DNA of 61,595 nucleotides, filler included, from Candidatus Omnitrophota bacterium (GTDB lineage: Bacteria > Omnitrophota > Gorgyraeia > Zapsychrales > JBDRMG01): the NCBI GenBank assembly GCA_043812495.1. It is 5 parts of 5 records of this genome, joined end to end, with 100 filler letters (N's around TTAATTAATTAA, not from the genome) between each part and the next. Parts side by side here need not be neighbours in the genome. Positions count along the whole stretch, not along the records: positions 16,762 to 27,507 come from JBDRMG010000051.1; 4 more parts are not named here. One strand, written 5' to 3'. Below, one piece after another: positions 15,440 to 61,595 of this stretch. The notes beneath the pieces were generated by a model, which saw only the letters and a list, made by a program, of their open reading frames with translations, was not told the origin of the DNA and made no database searches. Each line of letters opens with the position of its first letter. Position 1 is the stretch's first letter. A program made the position numbers and the translations under genes.

Positions 15440-15504
15440 ATGGACCCGACCCCGCCGTCTGCCTGTCGGCAGACAGGCGGCGGGGTGGCCTCTTCCATGT
15501 CAAG
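15440..15504 (-). pseudogene. tRNA-Val 3' half with T-arm replaced by a palindromic insert
   Basis: Matches tRNA-Val (TGGACCCGAC...GTGGCCTCTTCCATGTCAAG on + strand) except that AAGACTCGAACTT is replaced by CCCGCCGTCTGCCTGTCGGCAGACAGGCGGCGGG. Confidence 0.8.
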
Positions 15505-15591
15505 CTCGTCACGCGTAAACGCGTGCCGAAGTCTCGTCCCGATAAATCGGGACAAAACAATTCTGAATACTATAAGGGTATTCTATATTTC

Positions 15592-15637
15592 TGGTGGACT
15601 CAGGGGGGCTCGAACCTCCGACCTCTTCCATGTCAAG
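15592..15637 (-). pseudogene. 3' half of a second tRNA-Val(GAC) with encoded CCA
   Basis: CTTGACATGGAAGAGGTCGGAGGTTCGAGCCCCCCTGAGTCCACCA; acceptor strand pairs with the 5' half at 15852-15876. Confidence 0.8.
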
Positions 15638-15734
15638 CCCCGATTTTGCTTTTATTGACACTATGGAAATCGGGGTGCCGGCTTCCACAATTTAAAAATA
15701 GAAGAGCCGGCAAAGCGCTTTGAGTCAATTACAA

Positions 15735-15808
15735 TGGACCCGACAAGACTCGAACTTGTGGCCTCTTCCATGTCAAGGAAGCGCTCTAACCAACTGAGCT
15801 ACGGGTCC
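15735..15808 (-). tRNA. tRNA-Val(GAC)
   Basis: Full cloverleaf GGACCCG...CTTCC-TTGACAT-GGAAG...CGGGTCCA; CCA not encoded. Confidence 0.95.
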
Positions 15809-15851
15809 AAAATTCTTTCCTTATATCAACTTATTTTATCGAAGAGCAACT

Positions 15852-15876
15852 CTCTAACCAACTGAGCTATGAGTCC
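15852..15876 (-). pseudogene. 5' half of second tRNA-Val
   Basis: GGACTCATAGCTCAGTTGGTTAGAG. Confidence 0.75.
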
Positions 15877-15915
15877 ACAAATCTAATTTCTATAGTCCCG
15901 ATTTATCGGGACGGA

Positions 15916-16241: not shown

Positions 16242-16547
16242 TCATTGAGCGAAGTCCCGAGTCTCCCTCTTTTCTTGATTGCGAGACGAGGGAAACCTCT
16301 TGCCAGTTCCATAAAGAGCTAAATTTTCCTTATTCTTCCTGCTATATCTTTTTATTTCTTTTTCTCTCAACTCAGCGCTTTTCTTGCTCGACAACTCTTC
16401 ATAATAAATCAATTCAACAGGTCGTCTATGCTTTGTGTATTTGGCTCCTCTTCCTTCATTGTGCTGCTGAACCCTTGAATGAATATCTTCTGATGACCCT
16501 ACGTAAAAAGATCTATCCGAGCAGAGTAAAATGTAAATATACCACAT
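16242..16547 (-). CDS. Small GIY-YIG nuclease (UPF0213-like)
   Basis: WYIYILLCSDRSFYVGSS...R...HNEGRGAKYT...A..REKEIK. Confidence 0.9.
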   Translation of the reverse strand: MWYIYILLCSDRSFYVGSSEDIHSRVQQHNEGRGAKYTKHRRPVELIYYEELSSKKSAELREKEIKRYSRKNKENLALYGTGKRFPSSRNQEKRETRDFAQ

Positions 16548-16761: not shown

Positions 16762-16762
16762 T

Positions 16763-16901
16763 AAATCAAGGGGAAATGAAGAAAATTTGACGCAACGCAT
16801 TGAAATGACGTAAGTTATGATTCCGCAAATTTTACGTAAAGACAGTTTTTCAAAATAAACGTAAAAAAATTATTTTAAAATATTTTTTAACAAAGTACTG
16901 T
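16763..16901. repeat. 139-bp repeat, reverse complement of 61457-61595 (probable end of a multicopy element)
   Basis: Exact reverse-complement match at two sequence ends. Confidence 0.85.
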
Positions 16902-17103
16902 AAAATAGACATTAAGGAAGTCGGGACGAGGCGCAAATTTCGCTCATAAAAAAATAGAGAATCTACGCCTGCCCCGACGTTTTCTAAAATAGACATTAAG
17001 GAAGTCGGGACGAGGCGCAAATTTCGCTCATAAAAAAATAGAGAATCTACGCCTGCCCCGACGTTTTCTAAAATAGACATTAAGGAAGTCGGGACAAGGC
17101 GCA
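16901..17103. repeat. 84-bp tandem repeat (~2.4 copies) containing a hairpin
   Basis: Units start at 16901, 16985 and 17069; CCCGAC...GTCGGG stem. Confidence 0.9.
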
Positions 17104-17286
17104 TTTTTCTCTCAATATAGAAATAATGGATAAATGCGCCTGTGGCTTCCCGACGCTCCGACTTCCATAATTGATTATAAGAGAAAGTCGGATGTCGGGA
17201 CTCCGACTTCCGACTCCCAAAAAAATCACAAAAAGTCGGAACGTCGGAGCAATTGGATGTTTAAGAATATGTTAATAAATAAATTT

Positions 17287-17360
17287 GCGCCTGTAGCTCA
17301 ATCGGATAGAGCATTTGCCTACGGAGCAAAGGGTTGGAGGTTCGAATCCCCCCAGGCGCA
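17287..17360 (+). tRNA. tRNA-Arg(ACG)
   Basis: GCGCCTG...TTTGC-CTACGGA-GCAAA...GGTTCGAATCC..CAGGCGCA. Confidence 0.95.
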
Positions 17361-17439
17361 TTGGATAAGTTGTCAGGTTTCCGGCAATCCCGCCTTTGGC
17401 GGGATTGCCGAGACCTCGTCCCGCCAATGGCGGGACGGG

Positions 17440-17894
17440 CGAATCCTGGCAGGCGCATTAATATAGGAAGTTTCCGTCTCGTCTCGCTATCATTTTGAGG
17501 GATAGCGAGACAGACGAGACCTCGCCCATCAAAATTGTGAAACAATTTTGATGAGGCGGGCGAATCTTCCCAGGCGCACCAGTCTTCGTTCCCAAACTTT
17601 CGTTTGGGAACTACGCCTGGTTTTAAAAATAGTTACGTTTGGGTATTCAAAAACCCGGCGAAGCCACACACGATAAAGTATGTGGCGAAGACGGACTTCC
17701 CAGGCGCATTCTACTTTGCCCAAATGTTCTTCTTCGCATGAAGCTTCGAAGAATTCTGCGAAGCAAAATATGGAAAATATTTTGCGGAGCAAAACTTACG
17801 CGTTGGGCTACGTAGAATTGCGAATATACCTTAGTCCGTCAGGGCTACGAAGCCCGCCACTGCATCAATGGCGGGCGAAGTGGGCCCAGGCGCA
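17440..17894 (+). repeat. Four echoes of the tRNA-Arg 3' end separated by different hairpins
   Basis: CAGGCGCA-ending segments at 17440-17457, 17561-17581, 17697-17708, 17885-17894. Confidence 0.8.
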
Positions 17895-17920
17895 CTCTAT
17901 TTAGATGAAAATAGTGAACA

Positions 17921-19081
17921 ATGAATAAAAATAAATTAAACACATCTTCCATAATCCCGCATTTAGGAAATATGTCCCTCAAAGACAGACTTAATTCGTG
18001 CAATGATATTTTTAATAAGATTGGCGATGAAATCATTCTGATCAATCATCAAGGAAGGATTATCTATGCCAATGAATCCGCGGTTCAGGGTTTGGGTTAT
18101 CCGCGAAAGACTCTTCTGAGCAAGCGCATCATGGATTTTTATAAGCAAAAGTTAAGTCTCAAAATATGGAAAACAAAATACTTTCAGGAGCTTAAAAGAA
18201 GCGGGAGGCCTATTTCTTACCAGATTGAGCGTGTTGTCCGAAATGGAAAAACGCGCACTCTGGAAGCGACCGCTGTTTACGTGTGCTACGGGACGCAAGA
18301 ATTTATCTTATCCATCGGTCGGGATGTCACAGAGAAATTAGAATTTACGAGGAATCGTCAGGATTACGAAAAGATGATTGCGCTTAGCCTGTTTGTGTCG
18401 GGAACGGCTCAAGAAATCAAATATCCTCTCGAAGCCATCCTTTCACATATCCAAACAATGCTCAAAAAATACGGGCAGTGCGATTTTGAATATATCGGAT
18501 ACAAGGAATTCAAGAATATCATCAAAACCATGACGGATATCAGTAATCAAATTCGCCACTGTTGTGACATCACCGGCAAACTTTTGACCTTAAATAGGAA
18601 AAGAGCAGGTACCAAGGAAGGAAGCTGCAATGCCAATGATTGCATCCAGGAAAACTTGCGGATATTATCGCAGCAATTAAATTATACGTCCGTTAAGGTA
18701 CAGCTTAAATGCTCGAGAAATTTACCACCTGTGGCCATAAGCGAAAGCGACCTGAATCAAGTGATCCGCCATCTTGTTTCTAATGCGATTTATGCCATGC
18801 CCAGCGGCGGCCGTTTGACCATAAAATCGTTTTTAAGAAGGAAAGAAGGGAAAGCGCAGCTGGAATTTAAAGACGAGGGGATCGGTATTCCCAAAGAAAA
18901 TCTACCCCATGTCTTCGAAGCCTTTTTCACGACACGTCAACGCGGCATCGGTCAAAGCGCCGGACTCGGGCTTTCCGTGGTTCATTCCATTATCAAAGCA
19001 GCCAAGGGCGATGTGTCCATCCAGAGCAATTTAAGGCAAGGAACGCTCATTAAGGTTATCCTCCCCGTTAAAAGTAAATAG
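17921..19081 (+). CDS. PAS-domain histidine-kinase-like protein lacking the phosphoacceptor His
   Basis: PAS domain, H-box GTAQEIKYPL, HATPase N/G1/F/G2 boxes present. Confidence 0.85.
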   Translation: MNKNKLNTSSIIPHLGNMSLKDRLNSCNDIFNKIGDEIILINHQGRIIYANESAVQGLGYPRKTLLSKRIMDFYKQKLSLKIWKTKYFQELKRSGRPISYQIERVVRNGKTRTLEATAVYVCYGTQEFILSIGRDVTEKLEFTRNRQDYEKMIALSLFVSGTAQEIKYPLEAILSHIQTMLKKYGQCDFEYIGYKEFKNIIKTMTDISNQIRHCCDITGKLLTLNRKRAGTKEGSCNANDCIQENLRILSQQLNYTSVKVQLKCSRNLPPVAISESDLNQVIRHLVSNAIYAMPSGGRLTIKSFLRRKEGKAQLEFKDEGIGIPKENLPHVFEAFFTTRQRGIGQSAGLGLSVVHSIIKAAKGDVSIQSNLRQGTLIKVILPVKSK

Positions 19082-19088
19082 AGATCTT

Positions 19089-19568
19089 TTGATGCAAAAA
19101 GAAGCCAACCACTTTATGAATGAAGCGCTCAAATTGGCACAAATCGCCTTTGAAAAGGATGAAGTGCCGGTCGGTGCCGTTATCACCCATAAAGGGAAGA
19201 TTATAGCAAAAGCCCACAACCAGGTTGAAACGCTTAAGGATCCGACCGCGCATGCCGAAATGCTGGCGATTACGCAGGCGACCAGTACATTGTCGTCCAA
19301 GTGGTTGCAGGAATGCACCCTGTATGTTACAATCGAACCCTGCGCGATGTGCGCGGGCGCTTTAGTCTTGGCGCGGATCAAGAAACTGGTATTTGGAGCC
19401 AAAGACCTTAAAGCCGGCGCGTGCGGGTCTGTGATGAACATCGCGTATCACAGAGACCTCAATCATCGCGTGGACATCCAGCAAGGCCTGATGGCGCAGG
19501 AATGCGCAGAGCTTGTAAGCGAATTCTTTAAAAAGAAAAGACGAAGCTATCTGGCGATGACGAATTGA
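19089..19568 (+). CDS. tadA: tRNA adenosine(34) deaminase
   Basis: EVPVGAV, DPTAHAE, TIEPCAMCAGA. Confidence 0.95.
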   Translation: MMQKEANHFMNEALKLAQIAFEKDEVPVGAVITHKGKIIAKAHNQVETLKDPTAHAEMLAITQATSTLSSKWLQECTLYVTIEPCAMCAGALVLARIKKLVFGAKDLKAGACGSVMNIAYHRDLNHRVDIQQGLMAQECAELVSEFFKKKRRSYLAMTN

Positions 19569-19677
19569 AGAAGGAAGCGAGATCCCTCGCCCGCCATTGA
19601 TTTATTGGCGGGCTCGGGATCCAAATTTTTGCTTAATGAATCGTTCGCCATTTAAGAAAGACAAATGGCCGAAAAAG

Positions 19678-20085
19678 ATGTTTTATACGTATATTTTGAT
19701 TAGCAAGTGCGGGAGAAGGACGTATACAGGGAGTACGTCTGATTTAAAGAGACGAATAAAAGAACATAATTTAGGCGAAGTCAAGTCTTCAAGGGCATTT
19801 AGACCGTTTGAGTTAATGCATTTTGAAGAATTTTCTGATAAGAAGGAAGCAAAGATCAAAGAAGTATTCTATAAATCTAGAACAGGAAGACGCCAATTAA
19901 AGAGAATCATGGAAAATTGGAAACAAAATCAAAGTGCTACAAAGACAACATTTCGAAATTTTTATAATATAATGGAAAGTCCGAGACTCGGTGCCCTGCC
20001 CAAAGGCAGGGCGCCGGTCTCGGCAATTTTTCAGCAAACGAATAGAATAAGATGGAAAATTTTTTGGCCGGCATCCCATTTTTAA
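19678..20085 (+). CDS. Small GIY-YIG nuclease
   Basis: MFYTYILIS...TYTGSTSDLKRRIKEHN...RPF...E...KSRTGR; the C-terminal tail runs through palindromes. Confidence 0.85.
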   Translation: MFYTYILISKCGRRTYTGSTSDLKRRIKEHNLGEVKSSRAFRPFELMHFEEFSDKKEAKIKEVFYKSRTGRRQLKRIMENWKQNQSATKTTFRNFYNIMESPRLGALPKGRAPVSAIFQQTNRIRWKIFWPASHF

Positions 20086-20141
20086 TGGGATGCCGAGCCT
20101 CGGCAAATTTTCTCTCACTTAAGTAATTGGAAAATTTGACG

Positions 20142-20229
20142 GGAGAGGTGCCGGAGTGGCTGAACGGAGCTGCCTGCTAAGCAGTTGGCCCTGTCATGGG
20201 GCCCTCGGGTTCGAATCCCGACCTCTCCG
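20142..20229 (+). tRNA. tRNA-Ser(GCT)
   Basis: GGAGAGG...GCTGC-CTGCTAA-GCAGT, long variable arm, ...CCTCTCCG. Confidence 0.95.
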
Positions 20230-20362
20230 TTCTGCTTCGCCCCCGCATTTTCATGCGGGGGCTTCGAAGCAACAAGTTCTTGCGAAGCGCGTACCATCAT
20301 TCAAGCATTAAAGCGCGAAGCAGAACGAACTGCAAGATTCTAAAGAAAATCAGTATCCCCCA

Positions 20363-20391
20363 TTGACAACTCATGACCCGTCATGTAACAT
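20363..20391 (+). promoter_or_regulatory. Sigma70 promoter with an operator-like palindrome in the spacer
   Basis: TTGACA-17-TAACAT; CATGAC-CC-GTCATG at 20372-20385. Confidence 0.55.
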
Positions 20392-20444
20392 AAATATCGA
20401 CGAGAAGAAATGAAGAAAATTTATATTTTAAGCGAGAGAAAACG

Positions 20445-21473
20445 ATGAAAAGCCTAAAATTCAGATATCTGCTTGTTTCGATGGTTACACTTGCGTTAGC
20501 GTTGTCGATGCGTTCTTCTTTAGTCCTTGCTCAGGCCCTTAGCCCAAAAGTCCAGAAAGTTGAGCTCCAGAAATCTTTGGGGCCAACACCCGCCCAGGAC
20601 CGATCCAGCATAAGCAACGATGATCAGGAAAAAGAAATCCTGAACAAGAAAATATTTGAAACGGCGTTGGTTGTTTTGATCGGCTATTTGCTGATTTTTA
20701 TATTTGTCGGTATTACCAATAAGAAAATTAAAGAGATAAGAACCAGGCATTTTGTAAGAAGAAATATTGTCTATTTCTTGACCTTTCTGATCCTCCTATT
20801 TGTCATCTTCATATGGATTCAGAAAATCAACTCGCTGACCATATTTTTAGGCGTTGCATCCGCCGGTTTAGCCTTGGCTCTTCAGGAAGCAATTTTATGC
20901 ATTGCCGGCTGGTTTTTGATTTTGCTCAGAAAACCCTTTGATGTGGGTGATCGTGTCGAGCTGAACGGCGTTAAAGGTGATGTCATCGACATCCGCCTTT
21001 TTCAGACATCGTTGCTCGAAATCGGCAATTGGGTCGATGCCGATCAAAGCACCGGGCGCATTGCCAATGTTCCCAATAGTGCCGTCTTTAAAAAAGAAAA
21101 CTATAACTATAATCGCGGGTTTGAATATATATGGAACGAAATACCTATTATGGTAACTTTTGAAAGCGATTGGAAACGCGCCGAACAGATTATGCTTGAA
21201 CATGGCCAGACATATGCCTTAGGCGTCGAAGACGGCGTGCAGAAGAAAATCGAATCCATGGCCAGGCACTACATGATTTATTACGGAAAATTAACGCCCA
21301 TTGTTTATGTCAACATCAAGGACAGCGGAGTTGAGCTCATCTTGCGCTACTTGACCGAAGCCAAAAAACGTCGTTCCACGCAGGACAAATTGTGCCGGGC
21401 GATTTTAGATGATTTCGCCAAAGAAGAAAAAGTCAACTTTGCTTATACGACATACCGGATTGTCAAAGACTAA
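20445..21473 (+). CDS. mscS: Small-conductance mechanosensitive channel family protein
   Basis: GLALALQE, KPFDVGDRVE..GVKGDVIDI, N-terminal TM helices. Confidence 0.88.
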   Translation: MKSLKFRYLLVSMVTLALALSMRSSLVLAQALSPKVQKVELQKSLGPTPAQDRSSISNDDQEKEILNKKIFETALVVLIGYLLIFIFVGITNKKIKEIRTRHFVRRNIVYFLTFLILLFVIFIWIQKINSLTIFLGVASAGLALALQEAILCIAGWFLILLRKPFDVGDRVELNGVKGDVIDIRLFQTSLLEIGNWVDADQSTGRIANVPNSAVFKKENYNYNRGFEYIWNEIPIMVTFESDWKRAEQIMLEHGQTYALGVEDGVQKKIESMARHYMIYYGKLTPIVYVNIKDSGVELILRYLTEAKKRRSTQDKLCRAILDDFAKEEKVNFAYTTYRIVKD

Positions 21474-21535
21474 ACGTTTCTCCCGTTAAGTATTCCTGAT
21501 CGAAGTAACCGTTTTATCTCGCGCACAATATCTTC

Positions 21536-21832
21536 ATGAAGGACGTCACCTGCCATATCGGTGTTTTGCTCATTGCGTTATTTATTCCCAGTGCCCGGTC
21601 CTTGAAGGACAAGCGGACAGTGATCAAAAGCTTGAAAGACCGCGTCCGTCAGACATTTAATGTTTCCGTCGCTGAGCTCGATAGCCAGGACAAGTGGCAG
21701 GTCGCTAACTGCGCGATCGCTATGATCAACAGCGACCGCCGCTATATCAACCAGTGTCTTGCGAATGTCCTTTCGATGATCGAGTCGCAAGGGAGTGTTG
21801 AGGTTACAGATCATCAGATGATGTTTATGTGA
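21536..21832 (+). CDS. DUF503 (YlxP-like) protein
   Basis: SLKDKR.VIKSLKDR....FNVSVAE...QDKWQ. Confidence 0.88.
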   Translation: MKDVTCHIGVLLIALFIPSARSLKDKRTVIKSLKDRVRQTFNVSVAELDSQDKWQVANCAIAMINSDRRYINQCLANVLSMIESQGSVEVTDHQMMFM

Positions 21833-21885
21833 AATGAGAGTATTCTTTTCAACAGTATGAAAAAATCATTTTTGTGATACAATTT

Positions 21886-22031
21886 AATGAGGTCTGCACT
21901 TATGGATTGAGCGCCTGCCGAAAGGCAGGAGTGAAAGACATAAGTGCAAGACCGAATTAACCCCGACCATCAATCTGATTACACAAGTTTGACGGTCGAG
22001 GAACAAAAAAATGGAATTATAATGTTTCATC
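21886..22031 (+). repeat. AATGAG/CGAATT element, copy C
   Basis: AATGAG-GTCTGCACTTATG..CATAAGTGCAAGAC-CGAATTAA-CCCCGACC..GGTCGAGG..AATTATAATGTTTCATC. Confidence 0.85.
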
Positions 22032-22047
22032 GTGCTGATATTTTTCT

Positions 22048-23706
22048 ATGAATTATATTGTTTTAGCCAGAAAGTACCGACCTCAGATTTTTGACGATGT
22101 CATTGGCCAAGGTCACATCACGGATATCCTCAAGAAAGCCGTTCAGGCCGACCGATTGGCGCATGCCTATCTTTTTTGCGGCCCGCGCGGAATCGGAAAA
22201 ACCTCTTGCGCGCGCATCTTGGCTAAATCGCTCAATTGCGCCAAGGGTGCGACCCTCAAGCCCTGCGGGGTGTGTCCGGCCTGCAAAGAGATTGCCCTAG
22301 GAAACAGTTTCGATGTGATTGAAGTTGACGGGGCCTCCAATCGCGGCATCGATGAAATCCGAACGCTTCGCGAAAATGTCAAGTTTGCTCCTAGCTACGG
22401 CCGATACAAGATCTATATTGTCGACGAAGTCCATATGCTCACCACCGAGGCCTTCAATGCGCTTCTAAAGACTCTCGAAGAACCGCCCGAATATGTGAAA
22501 TTTATCCTGGCCACAACCGTGCCGAACAAAGTTCCCTCAACTATCATTTCGCGTTGTCAGCGGTTTGATTTTCGCCGTATTTCTATGGATGGAATTACCA
22601 AATCCCTTGTGGATATCTGCAAAAGTGAGAAATTTAAAGTTGATGAGAATGCCTTGCAGGCTATCGCGAAGGCGGCCTCAGGCAGTTTACGCGATGCTTT
22701 AAGCATCCTGGACCAGTTGAGCGCGCTCAGTAGCCGCGCCATCAAGGCCGATGACGTGTTTTCGATGCTTGGGATGGTCGAGGTTGACCTGTTGTTTGCG
22801 CTTGCGGATGCTCTCGGTGATAAAGATTGCGCGAAGGCCCTGGATATTTTTGATCAGATTCTGACAAAAGGCAAGGACGTCCGGCAGCTGGCCAAAGACC
22901 TGATTGAGCATTTCCGGAATCTTATGATCGTCAAGATAGGCGGAAAAGCCTTAGGCCGTTTGATCGAATATCCCGTCGCGATTAAAGAACAACTCTTAGT
23001 CCAATGCGAAAAATTTGATTTAAAAGAAATCCTTAAGGCCATTGATACGCTCATTGAAGCGCAGGAAATGAGCCGCATCATGGATTCCCTTCAGATTCCT
23101 CTTGAAGTCGCGTTTGCCAAGCTCGCTTACCGGCCTGAGGCTTCGAACGATAAAGAACCGCAAACAATCAAGACAGAGAATCAGCAACCGGACAACGCAA
23201 ATAATTTTAAGAAAAACAAGCCGTCGGCTTCCGTTATAGAAATCCTGTCCAACCAAAAAGGTCATGTCAATTTTGGAATAGAAAAGACCGACGCTAGCGC
23301 CGAAGACAGCGAAGAGCAAGCGCAAACATTAAACGAAGAGATTGACTTTCCCGGTGAATTGAGTATAGAGGCAGTGAAAAAATCATGGGACGCCGTAACC
23401 CACGCGATCAGCCTTAAGAAAATGTCCGTGGCAACGTTTTTACAAGAAGGCGCACCCTATGCCATTTGCAAAAACACTATTACGATCAGCTTTTCCAAAG
23501 AAGCCGCGTTTCACAAAGAGACCTTGGAAGAAAGGGATAAAATATCTCTCATTGAAAAGGCATTCTCAGAAACGCTTAAAAGAAATGTCAGGGTCAAGCT
23601 CAAAATTGTGGACGACCATAAGCCTCCCGAAGACGAACCCAATATTAAGGCCGCTTTGGATACATTTAAAGGAAAAGTGGTCAATAAATGGCATCGCCAT
23701 GAATAG
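22048..23706 (+). CDS. dnaX: DNA polymerase III subunit gamma/tau
   Basis: LARKYRPQ, GPRGIGKTS, DEVHML, AFNALLKTLEEPP. Confidence 0.97.
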   Translation: MNYIVLARKYRPQIFDDVIGQGHITDILKKAVQADRLAHAYLFCGPRGIGKTSCARILAKSLNCAKGATLKPCGVCPACKEIALGNSFDVIEVDGASNRGIDEIRTLRENVKFAPSYGRYKIYIVDEVHMLTTEAFNALLKTLEEPPEYVKFILATTVPNKVPSTIISRCQRFDFRRISMDGITKSLVDICKSEKFKVDENALQAIAKAASGSLRDALSILDQLSALSSRAIKADDVFSMLGMVEVDLLFALADALGDKDCAKALDIFDQILTKGKDVRQLAKDLIEHFRNLMIVKIGGKALGRLIEYPVAIKEQLLVQCEKFDLKEILKAIDTLIEAQEMSRIMDSLQIPLEVAFAKLAYRPEASNDKEPQTIKTENQQPDNANNFKKNKPSASVIEILSNQKGHVNFGIEKTDASAEDSEEQAQTLNEEIDFPGELSIEAVKKSWDAVTHAISLKKMSVATFLQEGAPYAICKNTITISFSKEAAFHKETLEERDKISLIEKAFSETLKRNVRVKLKIVDDHKPPEDEPNIKAALDTFKGKVVNKWHRHE

Positions 23707-23718
23707 ATTTTGGAAACG

Positions 23719-24333
23719 ATGAATTATCCAAAACTTATTGAGGATCTCATCCAGAAACTCACCAGGCTTCCCGGCATTGGCCGGCGCAGTGCCGAGCGCA
23801 TCGTGTTTTACTTACTCAATAATACGAAGGAAGAGGCCGAAGGGCTATCGAAGGATATTGCGCGCGTCAAAAGCGAATTGATGTTTTGCCGCATCTGTAA
23901 CAATTTAAGTGATACAGAAATTTGTCTGATCTGCAGCGACACCGAAAGAGATGAGGGGACCATCTGTGTCGTGGAAAATCCCAAGGACGTATTGGCCATC
24001 GAAAAGACCGGCGTGTACCGCGGTCATTATCATGTTTTGTTGGGCGCGATATCGCCCTCCGACGGGCGAGGCCCGGATGATATCAAGATCGAAAAGCTCT
24101 TGGGGCGAATCAGGAATCAAAATATCCGTGAAATCGTGATTGCGACTGACCCCGATACGGAAGGTGAGACCACGGCGCTTTTTATTTCCAGGGAACTTAA
24201 GAAAACAGGCGTTAAGATCACGCGTATCGGCCTCGGGCTTCCTATGGGCGGATCTTTGGAGTATGCGGACCTTTCGACCTTGAGTATGTCCTTGAGCGCG
24301 CGCCGGGAGATCACCAAGGAAACCGGACATTAA
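23719..24333 (+). CDS. recR: Recombination mediator RecR
   Basis: LPGIGRRSAER, C4 zinc finger, TOPRIM EGETTA. Confidence 0.95.
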   Translation: MNYPKLIEDLIQKLTRLPGIGRRSAERIVFYLLNNTKEEAEGLSKDIARVKSELMFCRICNNLSDTEICLICSDTERDEGTICVVENPKDVLAIEKTGVYRGHYHVLLGAISPSDGRGPDDIKIEKLLGRIRNQNIREIVIATDPDTEGETTALFISRELKKTGVKITRIGLGLPMGGSLEYADLSTLSMSLSARREITKETGH

Positions 24334-24344
24334 GTTTGAAAAGG

Positions 24345-24372
24345 TTGACTTTTAGAAATATTTAAGTATAAT
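24345..24372 (+). promoter_or_regulatory. Sigma70 promoter for the tRNA-Asn locus
   Basis: TTGACT-16-TATAAT. Confidence 0.6.
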
Positions 24373-24490
24373 TCAATTTTTACAACGTTCTTTAATAAAC
24401 GTTTTCCCACATCGATAACCTTGGTTTTTAATTAGGGGAAATCGATGAGGGAATTTTCAGATTATAAAATAAGAGAAAATTCCCCTGTTA

Positions 24491-24628
24491 AATGAGCCCG
24501 TCGCTTATGAAATAAAATGACATAAGTGACATGGGCGAATTTACCTCGATTAATGAGGCCATGGTTTATGGAATAAGATGAACATAAACCATGAGGCTGA
24601 ATTAATCCCGAGGCCTCAGGCCGAGGGA
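24491..24628 (+). repeat. Two AATGAG/CGAATT elements, one nested in the other (D1, D2)
   Basis: AATGAG..CGAATTTACCTCG, then a second AATGAG..TGAATTAATCCCG at 24552. Confidence 0.75.
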
Positions 24629-24701
24629 CCCGTTAGGGCGAGAGGGCTCAGCCGGTATTTACTATTGGCTGAGCAACTAGAATCGTTCTTTTAGTACTTA
24701 T

Positions 24702-24727
24702 TCCCCTGTAGCTCAGTTGGTAGAGCG
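24702..24727 (+). pseudogene. Duplicated 5' end of tRNA-Asn followed by palindromes
   Basis: TCCCCTGTAGCTCAGTTGGTAGAGCG is identical to 25035-25060. Confidence 0.9.
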
Positions 24728-24784
24728 CCCGCTATAAAACGTGGCGGGTCCGCCAAGATTTTTGGCGGAGGTGGCTAATGTATA

Positions 24785-25144
24785 ATGTATAATGTATATG
24801 TTCTTCAAAGTAGTAAAAACAAGAAAAGATATGTAGGTTTTACAAGCAAAACTGTAGCTGAGCGATTAAAGGAACACAATTCTGGATCAAACAGTTTTAC
24901 GCGTCAAAATAAACCTTTTGAAGTTATTTATTCTGAGGAATACGATAATAAAAGTTTCGCCCAAAAGCGTGAGCGATTTCTAAAATCTGGTCACGGACGA
25001 AATTTTCTTAAAAGAAAACTAGCAGAACATTTATTCCCCTGTAGCTCAGTTGGTAGAGCGGGTGGCTGTGAGCAGGGTATGAAGGGAGGTGGCAACTGGC
25101 AAAGCGCGATACAAGGACTTATGAAGATCGCCGCGAATATTTAA
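24785..25144 (+). CDS. Small GIY-YIG nuclease whose frame runs through the tRNA-Asn 5' exon
   Basis: YNVYVLQS...RYVGFT...ERLKEHNSG...RERFLKSGHGR. Confidence 0.88.
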   Translation: MYNVYVLQSSKNKKRYVGFTSKTVAERLKEHNSGSNSFTRQNKPFEVIYSEEYDNKSFAQKRERFLKSGHGRNFLKRKLAEHLFPCSSVGRAGGCEQGMKGGGNWQSAIQGLMKIAANI

Positions 25145-25587
25145 TCTCTGCCGTTCGAAAGCGAAGAAAAAAAGTTCGTCAGAACGCAGTTAAATATAAA
25201 GGTGGTCGTTGCCAAATATGTGGCTATCATCGTTGTATCGACGCTCTCGAGTTTCATCATAATGACTCTTCGGGAAAAGACTTTAGCATATCAAGCAAAG
25301 GATATACTCGAAGCTGGGTTAAAGTCAAAGAAGAGTTAGAAAAATGTATTCTCGTTTGCGCCAATTGCCATCGTGAAATTCATGCTCAAAACGCAGCTTC
25401 TACGGGAAACCGTGGTTGAAAAAGCGGGAGGATTCAGGGAAGCCCAAACGTTAAGTCGAGGGTAATCCTGAGCCGAGCCCTGTAATTTAGGGAAGGTGCA
25501 GAGACTATGCACCCGCTACCTAAATCCAAGATTCATTGGATAAGGTAAAGAGATAGTCCAAGTCCGAAAGTAATTTCGGGTCACTTG
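25070..25587 (+). ncRNA. Group I self-splicing intron (IC3-like), 518 nt
   Basis: 5' exon ends in U and the intron ends in G; IGS GCAGCT (25393-25398) pairs with GGCTGT including the U-G wobble; core elements TTCAGGGAA, AATCCTGAGCC, GTGCAGAGACT, AAGAGATAGTCC; P3 AGCGGG/CCCGCT. Confidence 0.92.
25096..25419 (+). CDS. Intron-encoded HNH endonuclease (107 aa, CTG start; absent from the ORF track)
   Basis: GGAGGT SD then CTG; translation includes CQICGY..C..ALEFHH...CILVCANCHREIH. Confidence 0.82.
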   Translation: MAKRDTRTYEDRREYLISAVRKRRKKVRQNAVKYKGGRCQICGYHRCIDALEFHHNDSSGKDFSISSKGYTRSWVKVKEELEKCILVCANCHREIHAQNAASTGNRG

Positions 25588-27251
25588 TAACCACTAGGTC
25601 CGAGGTTCGAGTCCTCGCGGGGGAGCCAGTTAGACGTCTGACAGCGGATTTCTTCGCTGTCAGATTCGCATAGATCAAGTAGCCCTGTGTCGGGTTGACG
25701 CCCATACAGGGCTATTTGTATTTTGGTGGGGCTTAGGGTAGCTTTGTGCAGGACGAGCCTTACCATGTCCTTCTGCCGGTAAGGCTTTATCTTATCGAAA
25801 AGGTCGGAGAATCGGCTCAAAGCCAGCGTTACAAGCTCCCGGCTTATCGATTCCCGCTCGATCTCCTTGATCATGGCCTCAAGCGAGGCTATGCCGGTTT
25901 CTATCTCTTTCCGGCGTTGGCCAAGCTCGGCAAGTTTCTCTTTGAGGAATATACTGCTGTCATCCGTGGCCATGGCAGTCCATTTATTCATTATCCCATC
26001 GGCAAAAGCCTTTACCTCGGCCAGCTCTTTTTGAAGATGAGTTTTCCTGTGTTTAAGCTGTGGCAGTTCCTTCATTAGCTTTTCATTGGTATGCTCTATT
26101 AGCTTTTCCATTAGGCCGGAATCGGATGAGAGATATTTTATACGTTTGATTATAATACGTTCAATCTCATCAGCCGGGAGTTTGAACCGGCAATCTTTAT
26201 TTTTGCATACGTAGAAAAAGTATTTATTACCACGTCTGCCTGTCCCGCAGGTTCCTTCCATCTGCCCGCCGCATTTACCGCACCACAAAAGTCCGCCATT
26301 TAAAATATAAGTGTGTTTGATTGTTTTCGTGCCGTTGTGCTTGGTTTTGGTGTTTTGCTTGATGAGCTTCTGGACCTTGTAGAAGGTCTCCTCATCGATT
26401 AAAGGCTCCCAGACCGCCTTGACGGTCCTGTAGCGCTCTTTTTCCTGTAGCTTTGTCTGATCCTCTAATCTTTTCTTTTTGTTGATCTCTTTAAGTCCGA
26501 TATAGGCGCAATTGACGAGTAGTTGTTTTATGGATGACCGGCCGAATTTCTCGGGAGTGCGGAATTTGCCTCTTCGTGAGGTATATCCTTTGGTGCGATA
26601 GCCATTATCATTAAGGGCCCGGGCTGTTCCCATAAGCGAACCGCATTCAAGGTATTTCTTGAAGGCGAATCGCACAAGGGCCTTTTCTTTTTCGTTTACG
26701 ATTGGGTAACCTTTACGGTTAGGATCAAGGTCAAAGCCTAACAAATGCCCGCCATTCCACAGGCCTCGTTCTGCCCGGGCAAGTGTAGCTTCTTTATTGC
26801 GCTCGGAGGTCTGTGTCCGCTCGAATTCGGCCAAAGCCATCATTATAGTGATGAAAAGTTTTCCTTGAGAAGACGTGGTGTCGTAGTTTTGTTTTAAACA
26901 TACGAATTCGACATCGTATTTGGTGAGGATCTCGAAGAAGTTTAAGAAATCTCTTACCGAGCGGCTTATCCGGTCAAGTGCGGTACATATAACGGTATTT
27001 ACCTTACCTGACTTGATATCCTCGAGAAGTTGGGCAAATTCGATGCTTCGGAAGGAATCCTTGCCGGAGATACCTTTAAGAATGTATCGGCCGGTTTCGA
27101 CCCATCGTTCCCCGCAGGCAGTGGTTTTATATTCGATATGGGCCTGCAGACGCTGGAGTTGATTGGTAAGCGAGCCCTCAGGGTTTCGGGCCTGTTTGTC
27201 GGTGCTTACCCTTATCACGAATCCGCAGTTTTTGATTATCTTATCTTCCAT
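25581..27251 (-). CDS. Large serine recombinase/integrase
   Basis: RVSTDKQ catalytic Ser, LDRISRS, LAEFER, recombinase domain, CxxC zinc ribbon, coiled coil; 3' end overlaps tRNA-Asn. Confidence 0.92.
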   Translation of the reverse strand: MEDKIIKNCGFVIRVSTDKQARNPEGSLTNQLQRLQAHIEYKTTACGERWVETGRYILKGISGKDSFRSIEFAQLLEDIKSGKVNTVICTALDRISRSVRDFLNFFEILTKYDVEFVCLKQNYDTTSSQGKLFITIMMALAEFERTQTSERNKEATLARAERGLWNGGHLLGFDLDPNRKGYPIVNEKEKALVRFAFKKYLECGSLMGTARALNDNGYRTKGYTSRRGKFRTPEKFGRSSIKQLLVNCAYIGLKEINKKKRLEDQTKLQEKERYRTVKAVWEPLIDEETFYKVQKLIKQNTKTKHNGTKTIKHTYILNGGLLWCGKCGGQMEGTCGTGRRGNKYFFYVCKNKDCRFKLPADEIERIIIKRIKYLSSDSGLMEKLIEHTNEKLMKELPQLKHRKTHLQKELAEVKAFADGIMNKWTAMATDDSSIFLKEKLAELGQRRKEIETGIASLEAMIKEIERESISRELVTLALSRFSDLFDKIKPYRQKDMVRLVLHKATLSPTKIQIALYGRQPDTGLLDLCESDSEEIRCQTSNWLPREDSNLGPSGYK

Positions 27252-27286
27252 AACAACATAACCCCTATAACAATACTTGGCACAAG

Positions 27287-27502
27287 TCAAGCTGAATCAA
27301 GGCCTTGTAAGGGCGATTCATCGCTTGGCTTAGTTCTATCAAGCAGGGCTTCAACCCGCTTTTTCCGATCCGGGCGTTCTTTTAAGAGGCCCTGGTCCTT
27401 CAAGTATTCGTATAGGCCATCGGAGAGGATGTCGATAAAACCCTCTTCCCACTGGGCCTTGTCTTTAATAGGTATATAAGTTATCTCGACTTTTTTCTTC
27501 AT
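27287..27502 (-). CDS. Small hypothetical protein upstream of the integrase
   Basis: 71-aa ORF co-oriented with the recombinase at the contig end. Confidence 0.55.
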   Translation of the reverse strand: MKKKVEITYIPIKDKAQWEEGFIDILSDGLYEYLKDQGLLKERPDRKKRVEALLDRTKPSDESPLQGLDSA

Positions 27503-27507
27503 TTGAT

Positions 27508-32629: not shown

Positions 32630-32910
32630 AGTGAGCACTAAATTTATGGAGCGATAGCGATCATAAATTTATGTGCGAACTGGGTCCGCCAAAGCTAAAT
32701 ACGTTCTCCTTCGCTAAAGCTTCGGAGAACGGTCTGCGAAGTTTTAACGAAGAAGACCGTAAGTATTTAGCGAAGGCGGACCTCGTACTTTTCGTTTGAT
32801 TCTACTTCGCCCGCCATTGAATCAGTGGCGGGCTTCGTAGAATTAAATTCATGTTTTAATTTATGTTCGTCCCGCCTTCGGCGGGACTCCATAAATTAAA
32901 CATTCATTTA

Positions 32911-32950
32911 AGGCGTGGACCGGAATCGAACCGGTGAATAATGGTTTTGC
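32911..32950 (-). pseudogene. 3' half of outer tRNA-Cys
   Basis: GCAAAACCATTATTCACCGGTTCGATTCCGGTCCACGCCT. Confidence 0.85.
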
Positions 32951-32984
32951 CCCTCGCTTTTAGATTTAATACAATTCCATTTAA

Positions 32985-33056
32985 AGGCGACGACCGGAAT
33001 CGAACCGGTGAATAATGGTTTTGCAGACCACTGCCTTACCACTTGGCTACGTCGCC
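32985..33056 (-). tRNA. tRNA-Cys(GCA)
   Basis: GGCGACG...GTGGT-CTGCAAA-ACCAT...CGTCGCCT. Confidence 0.95.
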
Positions 33057-33106
33057 AAATTTATTATAAATATTCTCGCTCGGGATGCCGAGCGAAAAGC
33101 GAGGCA

Positions 33107-33138
33107 AGACCACCGCCTTACCACTTGGCTACCACGCC
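33107..33138 (-). pseudogene. 5' half of outer tRNA-Cys
   Basis: GGCGTGGTAGCCAAGTGGTAAGGCGGTGGTCT; acceptor pairs with CCACGCC of the 32911-32950 half. Confidence 0.85.
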
Positions 33139-48857: not shown

Positions 48858-49079
48858 GGACAATGTAAAGAAGCTGTCGCGTCTCTTATCATCATCGACT
48901 CTACTTGCTTGTTATCAAAGAACCCTAAAGCGGCTGAAATCCTCAAGATTAAATCACAAAGGTTTAAAGAACGGCTCAAAAATTAACAAAGTCCTGAAAA
49001 TAATAAAAAGGGAAACTTTTTTATGTTTTTTTATTTAGAAATGCTAAATCTGGACTTTCGCTTTAACCAATTCTATCCG

Positions 49080-61456: not shown

Positions 61457-61595
61457 ACAGTACTTTGTTAAAAAATATTTTAAAATAATTTTTTTACGTT
61501 TATTTTGAAAAACTGTCTTTACGTAAAATTTGCGGAATCATAACTTACGTCATTTCAATGCGTTGCGTCAAATTTTCTTCATTTCCCCTTGATTT
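61457..61595. repeat. 139-bp repeat, reverse complement of 16763-16901
   Basis: Exact match; begins ACAGTACTTTG 46 bp upstream of the mreC start. Confidence 0.85.

Follow-up and report, generated by a model that had tools for sequence, protein, structure and literature searches.

In the window, that is, the whole 61,595-nucleotide stretch of DNA analysed here, in which runs of N join several contigs, the gene for tRNA-Asn(GUU) is split inside its anticodon by a group I intron, which carries a reading frame for a small HNH protein in the loop of P1. The intron is a nuclease-bearing form of a known class, and the sequence evidence argues that it is probably a mobile element, whose HNH endonuclease would cut uninterrupted tRNA-Asn genes. 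The split gene spans 25035-25628 (+) on contig C51 (window positions 16762-27507), in a host genome of 1.94 Mb that is 90.5% complete, and is composed as follows:

25035..25069 (+): tRNA-Asn exon 1, 35 nt; its last base is anticodon U35, which stands at -1 of the 5' splice site
25070..25587 (+): group I intron of 518 nt with a G as its last base; delimited by RF00028, by ARAGORN as i(36,518) and by uninterrupted relatives
25096..25419 (+): HNH endonuclease reading frame, 107 aa, in the P1 loop, with a CTG start inferred from relatives
25588..25628 (+): tRNA-Asn exon 2, from U36 to the encoded CCA

The 5' half of the tRNA closes with U33-G34-U35 and the 3' half opens with U36-A37-A38, and the acceptor, D, anticodon and T stems are all paired across the two halves. 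ARAGORN with intron search reports tRNA-Asn(gtt) i(36,518) at 25035-25628, in agreement with the identity proposed in an earlier reading of this DNA from its sequence alone; default ARAGORN and RF00005 both miss the gene, as that reading had expected of standard tRNA finders. Forty related genomes were compared, in 34 of which the tRNA-Asn gene was matched. An intron interrupts the same tRNA-Asn base in 12 of the 40, and the eight sequences fetched from the other 22 matched relatives are all uninterrupted and read through GT^TAA. The proposed split at 35/36 thus holds, and the junction is fixed independently of any model, because the uninterrupted relatives read straight through it. Among the alternative splice registers considered, only 35/36 yields a -1 U, a terminal G and the sequence of the uninterrupted relatives. 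Four loop bases of tRNA-Asn(GUU) precede the insertion and its boundaries are U and G, which places the intron in the 35/36 class. The related tRNA-Asn loci are mislabelled as tRNA-Thr by the ARAGORN intron search in 11 of 12 cases. In the host genome, at 90.5% completeness, the split gene is the sole Asn among the 42 tRNA genes reported by the same search, and a second full copy, for which the sequence-only reading had suggested looking, was not found by short-word BLAST of this 90.5%-complete genome.

The stretch 25070-25587 is a group I intron by its RF00028 match, the U.G pair at the 5' splice site, the terminal G and the covariation of a P3-P9 core. Its structural elements are:

25075..25083 (+): 5' strand of a predicted P1-extension helix, which pairs with 25379-25387 and closes the loop of the reading frame in the minimum-energy fold
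25393..25397 (+): internal guide sequence, pairing with the final 5 nt of exon 1 (25065-25069), with U.G at the splice site
25400..25415 (+): P2 hairpin with a GAAA loop, changed on both sides in 6 of 6 pairs
25423..25559 (+): catalytic core with P3 (25423-28/25512-17), P4 (25434-39/25466-71), P5, P6, P6a, P7 (25501 and 25503-07/25554-59, bulged A at 25502, the G-binding site) and P8, from RF00028, pairing and covariation
25560..25587 (+): P9.0 (25560-63/25583-86), the P9 hairpin (25564-79, GNRA loop) and the terminal G

The RF00028 match covers 25371-25580 with 80.6 bits (E 6.7e-19) against a gathering score of 50, and is the only one in the whole genome; the intron type named beforehand, and the P2 hairpin read within it, are both borne out. 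In P1, U25069 pairs with G25393 at the 5' splice site. The five letters of the guide sequence are the same in all 12 intron-bearing relatives and in 57 of the 60 HNH intron loci described below, where the pattern that recognised the exons contained the boundary letters and the guide sequence lay outside it. A guide sequence directly after the 5' splice site was rejected, since it would leave a two-base loop and the conserved guide lies at 25393. The P1 extension has modest support, with 51 of 59 relatives folding better than their own shuffled mean. P2, P3, P4, P5, P6, P6a, P7, P8, P9.0 and P9 all form in the intron, and both sides have changed in 3 of 4 pairs of P9.0 and 5 of 6 of P9. Alignment of this core with those of 9 of the 12 intron-bearing relatives, in which P6a and distal P8 align poorly, gives 10 introns with 90.6% of cells paired and with both sides changed in 29 of 60 pairs. 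Slid controls pair at 29-47%, and none of 500 shuffles reaches the observed values, a count which is not a probability, since this very sequence served to draw the structure and the aligned introns are related. The whole precursor folds at z -6.1, with P1, the 9-pair P1 extension, P2, P8 and P9 forming unprompted. By eye, four relatives show a P10 helix formed with exon 2, which is not apparent in this intron. The core is compact (~195 nt), carries GNRA loops on P2 and P9 and is free of a P7.1/P7.2 insert or P5 extension; it may belong to subgroup IC3, the Azoarcus/cyanobacterial tRNA type. On the grounds of established group I chemistry (PMC3984707; Williams 2020), the intron almost certainly splices.

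The presence of a reading frame in the intron had likewise been recognised in the sequence-only reading. A Shine-Dalgarno-like GGAGG (25085-25089) precedes its CTG by six bases, and its final codons overlap the P1 extension, the guide sequence and P2. The arrangement is general, in that the HNH frame of 59 of 61 introns extends at least as far as the guide sequence; by a heuristic count, the starts over these 61 are TTG in 28, GTG in 17, ATG in nine and CTG in two. Among the HNH families of PHROG the best match is phrog_2255 (E 4e-28). Searches of Pfam and NCBIfam gave no match, those against the PDB gave weak matches only (E 0.0096 and 0.13), and the AlphaFold model is poor (mean pLDDT 48). 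The protein has 2820 homologues, the best of which are 75-82% identical, and in 27 aligned sequences C39, C42, H54, H55, C88, N90, C91, H92 and H96 are invariant. By its profile match and its conserved His and zinc-binding Cys residues, it is a predicted HNH endonuclease. Substitution patterns were derived from the 60 loci minus three (two with stops and one without the last His). The median distances of relatives to this copy are pN 0.19 and pS 0.78, and dN/dS is about 0.11 (0.11 over 16 comparisons free of saturation and again 0.11 over 32 pairs of closer sequences), with a range of 0.07-0.16 for this copy against relatives. Judged by these ratios, the HNH gene is under strong purifying selection.

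Two further genes overlap the tRNA-Asn locus, and neither is part of the intron. A sigma-70-like promoter (11/12) lies upstream at 24345-24372, and the surroundings further comprise:

24702..24776 (+): partial tRNA copy, with positions 1-26, then a 42-nt hairpin doublet, then positions 27-33
24785..25144 (+): small GIY-YIG nuclease reading frame (PF01541, E 1e-16)
25581..27251 (-): large serine recombinase with Resolvase, Recombinase and Zn-ribbon domains (phrog_95, E 3e-102)

The GIY-YIG frame crosses exon 1 and stops 75 nt into the intron. Of 16 GIY-YIG matches in the genome, 10 are no more than 500 nt away from a gene for a tRNA or tmRNA, so it is a separate, genome-wide element; the gene is present in 5 of 100 related loci. 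On the opposite strand, the part of the serine recombinase gene that encodes the C-terminus runs across exon 2 and into the intron's last 7 nt, and homologues of the recombinase occur in 9 of 100 related loci. The genome yielded no att copy that would mark the other end of the integrase element; the contig ends at 27507.

The intron and its HNH gene are unevenly distributed. Six of the 12 intron-bearing relatives carry the HNH gene (one frameshifted) and six carry an ORF-less intron of 212-388 nt. The HNH-bearing intron, the ORF-less intron and the uninterrupted gene thus occur as three allele states in one order, in line with what a homing cycle predicts. Of the order's 151 genomes, 27 (this one among them) have the HNH gene, with a patchy occurrence within genera. 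With several other phyla added, an ORF-carrying example in this lineage is less notable than the sequence-only reading had supposed. Screening 301 genomes of the phylum with a strict 3'-end pattern of the intron gave 22 matches, one of them this genome; the true number is higher, since the pattern misses one genome (G010) that has the intron. Of at least 571 HNH loci in GTDB genomes, the 80 best were examined: both tRNA-Asn exons were recognised by pattern in 60 and neither in one, the 5' exon alone in 11, several of them near contig ends, and the 3' exon alone in eight, seven with a variant 5' exon seen by eye. The HNH is thus tied to one insertion site, with at least 60 of its 80 best genomic homologues lying in the same intron. 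Record titles of the loci name Omnitrophota, Nitrospirota, Bacteroidota, Elusimicrobia, Melainabacteria and others.

In all 27 loci compared, the HNH is more similar to this copy than the adjacent RecR is, and its identity barely follows that of RecR (rho 0.23), with a deltaproteobacterial record at 72% for HNH versus 43% for RecR; these loci are best HNH hits and partly non-independent, a selection which inflates HNH identity and grouping. The contrast suggests old lateral spread. The closest HNH and the closest RecR are found in the same relative (L022, 83% and 77%), and the HNH, core and exon distances intercorrelate (rho 0.37-0.41), both of which fit much vertical descent. Recent transfer into this genome is not seen, because synonymous sites are saturated, and the trees, being unrooted and of fewer than 105 columns, make the comparison of distances and trees no proof of transfer; many of the 'Planctomycetia' labels in that comparison may stand for Omnitrophota. 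The host is most likely an omnitrophotan, because all 11 RecR homologues with an organism name are Omnitrophota, as are most of the named top HNH matches. Patescibacteria as host are not supported by these matches.

Viral relatives of the HNH point to the same tRNA. The nearest homologues in cultured phages are ~60% identical, and in 14 cultured-phage records picked of 99 (several of them kin) the HNH gene always lies among tRNA genes, in 10 of the 14 within 360 nt of tRNA-Asn. The 80 best HNH loci sampled from IMG/VR form 48 clusters at 80% identity. In 28 of these the nearest tRNA, at most 500 nt away, is an intact tRNA-Asn (on both sides in five); in six others tRNA-Asn stands elsewhere in the locus, 12 have tRNAs without an intact Asn, one has no tRNA, and in one the HNH is inside the intron. 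Asn accounts for 33 of 72 flanking tRNAs at the viral loci versus 10 of 211 others (Fisher p 9e-15, inflated by kinship). Since free-standing viral HNH genes flank tRNA-Asn, the target is indicated independently of the intron. Two of the 12 clusters without an intact Asn (L152 and L160) show, by eye, a free-standing HNH directly before an ORF-less 35/36 tRNA-Asn intron. The family thus occurs in three layouts: beside intact tRNA-Asn, beside an ORF-less intron (L152, L160) and inside the intron (L136 and the present window). In a quick tree, unrooted and with a sampling that favours grouping, 26 bacterial intron HNH proteins group (SH-aLRT 92, unstarred) among the viral ones; the tree gives no direction from phage to intron. 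Self-immunity of the phage tRNA-Asn copies was considered and set aside, as their stem variation may be ordinary. A literature search on the Ssn nuclease family found nothing.

The mechanism that we infer from these observations begins with splicing. In the folded pre-tRNA the guide sequence would hold the 3' end of exon 1 by base pairing (U35.G), free guanosine would attack at the 5' splice site, and the terminal G25587 would then move into the P7 site, whereupon the exons would be ligated and the GUU anticodon restored. Splicing should be essential if this gene is the sole tRNA-Asn copy. The product of the gene in the P1 loop would act as a homing endonuclease, cutting or nicking uninterrupted tRNA-Asn genes near the anticodon, and repair of the cut gene would copy the intron in. 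The intron would split the target site of the HNH, and the anticodon arm is nearly constant across the phyla sampled. A weak start codon, together with the overlap with the guide sequence and P2, may keep HNH expression low, and the same overlap may render translation and splicing mutually exclusive on any one molecule; such overlaps accompany tight control, according to a review (PMC3984707). The homing cycle fits because of the three allele states, the purifying selection and the phage linkage. In collaborative homing, as outlined in the same review, one target is common to an ORF-less intron and a free-standing endonuclease, and a mobile intron results once the two are fused; the HNH layouts (free-standing, adjacent and internal) would fit this route. 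The balance tips modestly towards the view that the small HNH family consists of homing endonucleases dedicated to tRNA-Asn and at work in both phages and bacteria, in free-standing, intron-adjacent and intron-fused forms.

Other explanations of the same locus may be considered. The intron may splice with the HNH kept as a maturase or for another host function, under vertical inheritance with repeated loss, a route that is named in the review (PMC3984707). Strong purifying selection without visibly recent transfer would agree with this, as would the partial agreement of HNH, core and exon distances, and the basic N-terminal helix of the HNH could conceivably bind RNA. Such a role is unlikely, however, in view of the six ORF-less introns of the same type in the order, the invariance of the nuclease-type His and Cys residues, and the free-standing viral HNH genes that adjoin intron-less tRNA-Asn genes. 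Alternatively, the intron may be real and this particular HNH copy unexpressed or decaying, leaving the element immobile here. CTG is a poor start codon, rare among the introns, and broken copies are known (the three of 60 dropped from the dN/dS set, and that of genome G035); against this, the frame is open, all invariant residues are kept, dN/dS is low, and a well-spaced GGAGG stands ahead of the CTG, all of which make a dead copy improbable. Some HNH proteins of defence systems are tied to tRNA cleavage, and the tight linkage to tRNA-Asn in viral contigs would also suit a family that cuts tRNA-Asn as RNA, an anticodon nuclease which phages pair with a resistant tRNA-Asn and which rides in the bacterial intron as an addiction-type passenger; this is very improbable, given that the gene sits in an intron which interrupts the presumed target, the classic homing layout, given that the host would cut its own only tRNA-Asn because the spliced tRNA equals the uninterrupted one, and given that an unsystematic look nearby noticed no conserved antitoxin gene.

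Introns in bacterial tRNAs are known. Bonocora and Shub are said to have reported in 2001 that a cyanobacterial tRNA-fMet intron encodes I-Ssp6803I, a PD-(D/E)XK enzyme. The two systems share an endonuclease aimed, here putatively, at the anticodon region of the uninterrupted gene; they differ in tRNA and site, and in having an HNH here versus, reportedly, a PD-(D/E)XK nuclease there. Nakagawa and colleagues reportedly found introns at 35/36 of tRNA-Asn and tRNA-Asp that self-splice in vitro and are missed by standard tools, and these are said to be mostly without endonuclease genes, mostly of subgroup IA and rare outside Patescibacteria. In contrast to the Patescibacteria introns, the present one belongs to another phylum, has an intact HNH, lacks a P7.1/P7.2 insert and is common in its order. 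By its title, the preprint (Nakagawa et al. 2025, bioRxiv 10.1101/2025.07.03.662931) concerns a new tRNA intron site in Patescibacteria.

Williams 2020 expanded the settings of tRNA introns from four to 21; by the naming rule of that work the present site is position 4, 'Asn.4Ug', and protein genes are held possible in introns longer than ~400 bp. Those introns resemble this one in the U at -1, the terminal G and the insertion in the anticodon loop. In the running text of Williams 2020, the table being an image and outside the search, the terms Asn, HNH, homing and Omnitrophota gave 0 matches each. The Azoarcus pre-tRNA-Ile group I intron is 205 nt long and has no ORF (PMC13168695); both introns are compact anticodon-loop introns with P2-P9 plus P9.0 and few peripheral domains, and the tRNA-Asn intron differs in its tRNA, its site and its reading frame. 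The likeness to collaborative or intronless homing by free-standing phage endonucleases (PMC3984707) is that free-standing, adjacent and internal layouts are all present in the HNH family, whereas, compared with the phage cases described there, such as psbA, the target is a tRNA, the fused form resides in bacterial chromosomes, and the system is known from sequences alone. A literature search outside the most relevant preprint and supplements found no account of an HNH in a tRNA-Asn 35/36 intron, of that intron in Omnitrophota, or of an HNH family dedicated to tRNA-Asn in phages and bacteria.

Genomes with such introns appear to lack tRNA-Asn, because default finders miss the gene and the ARAGORN intron search often calls it tRNA-Thr. 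To our knowledge, characterised endonucleases from tRNA introns are few. An HNH protein of 107 aa with a predictable, highly conserved target would make the spread of tRNA introns by homing directly testable, and the family would also allow a test of whether introns become mobile by capturing a free-standing phage endonuclease that was already directed at their own site. Should the family indeed be a dedicated tRNA-Asn endonuclease, its layouts would line up as a natural series for the origin, by collaborative homing, of mobile introns in an essential tRNA, and the 35/36 intron would be a mobile element across phyla. An HNH family with phage relatives beside tRNA-Asn is thus a testable candidate for the intron's means of spread.

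The intron of the tRNA-Asn(GUU) gene (25070-25587) is bordered by two protein-coding frames that each run across one of its boundaries.

24785-25144, plus strand: GIY-YIG nuclease ORF, whose frame crosses exon 1 into the intron
25581-27251, minus strand: serine integrase ORF, whose C-terminal end overlaps exon 2 and the 3′ end of the intron

A frame check shows that, were the intron missing, both ORFs would terminate inside the tRNA-Asn anticodon loop. The end of exon 1 coincides with a codon boundary in the GIY-YIG frame and the first triplet of exon 2 is TAA. On the opposite strand, an uninterrupted gene would turn the integrase codon lying across the 3′ splice site into a stop. The presence of the intron abolishes both stops, adding 25 residues to the GIY-YIG protein and 2 to the integrase. 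By the same frame check, translation of the GIY-YIG gene would traverse the 5′ splice site. The placement of both stops in the anticodon loop, and their removal by the intron, may be a coincidence of the sequence.

The GIY-YIG gene lies between the real tRNA-Asn and, on its 5′ side, an interrupted copy of it.

24702-24776, plus strand: partial tRNA-Asn copy (positions 1-33) with a 42-nt hairpin doublet inserted after position 26
19597-20085: GIY-YIG match
16242-16547: GIY-YIG match

From its arrangement, the copy looks like a duplication produced by a tRNA-linked GIY-YIG cassette. Genome-wide there are 16 GIY-YIG matches, and ten of them have a tRNA or tmRNA gene within 500 nt. Other repeats occur in the window.

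15485-15884 and 32907-33138: duplicated partial tRNA-Val and tRNA-Cys fragments with intact genes adjoining (repeat families D12, D16, D19 and D20)

In addition, an identical stretch of ~140 nt, found at the ends of many contigs of the genome (here 16763-16901, 48858-48997 and 61457-61595), is probably a multicopy insertion element that interrupted assembly.

Among the related intron-containing tRNA-Asn genes, 11 of 12 (L021-L032) were wrongly labelled tRNA-Thr by ARAGORN with intron search. In the best 80 loci, a single genomic homologue of the intron-encoded HNH endonuclease (L099) has neither tRNA-Asn exon nearby.

The HNH family extends to viruses. In five IMG/VR viral contigs (L143, L147, L148, L171 and L179) tRNA-Asn genes stand on both sides of a free-standing HNH gene, and in two others (L152 and L160) a free-standing HNH gene lies directly 5′ of a tRNA-Asn whose group I intron at 35/36 lacks an ORF. 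Klebsiella phage Muenster (locus L122, 2328-2636; MT708547.1, about 302827-303135) contains an unannotated tRNA (anticodon CAU) that is interrupted by a group I intron matching RF00028 at 104 bits; this tRNA is followed by a tRNA-Asn and a free-standing HNH gene of the same family. The group I introns of phages are described, in a 2014 review (PMC3984707), as known at that date from protein genes only. Intron matches related to that of phage Muenster are also present in other jumbo phages of Klebsiella and Escherichia.
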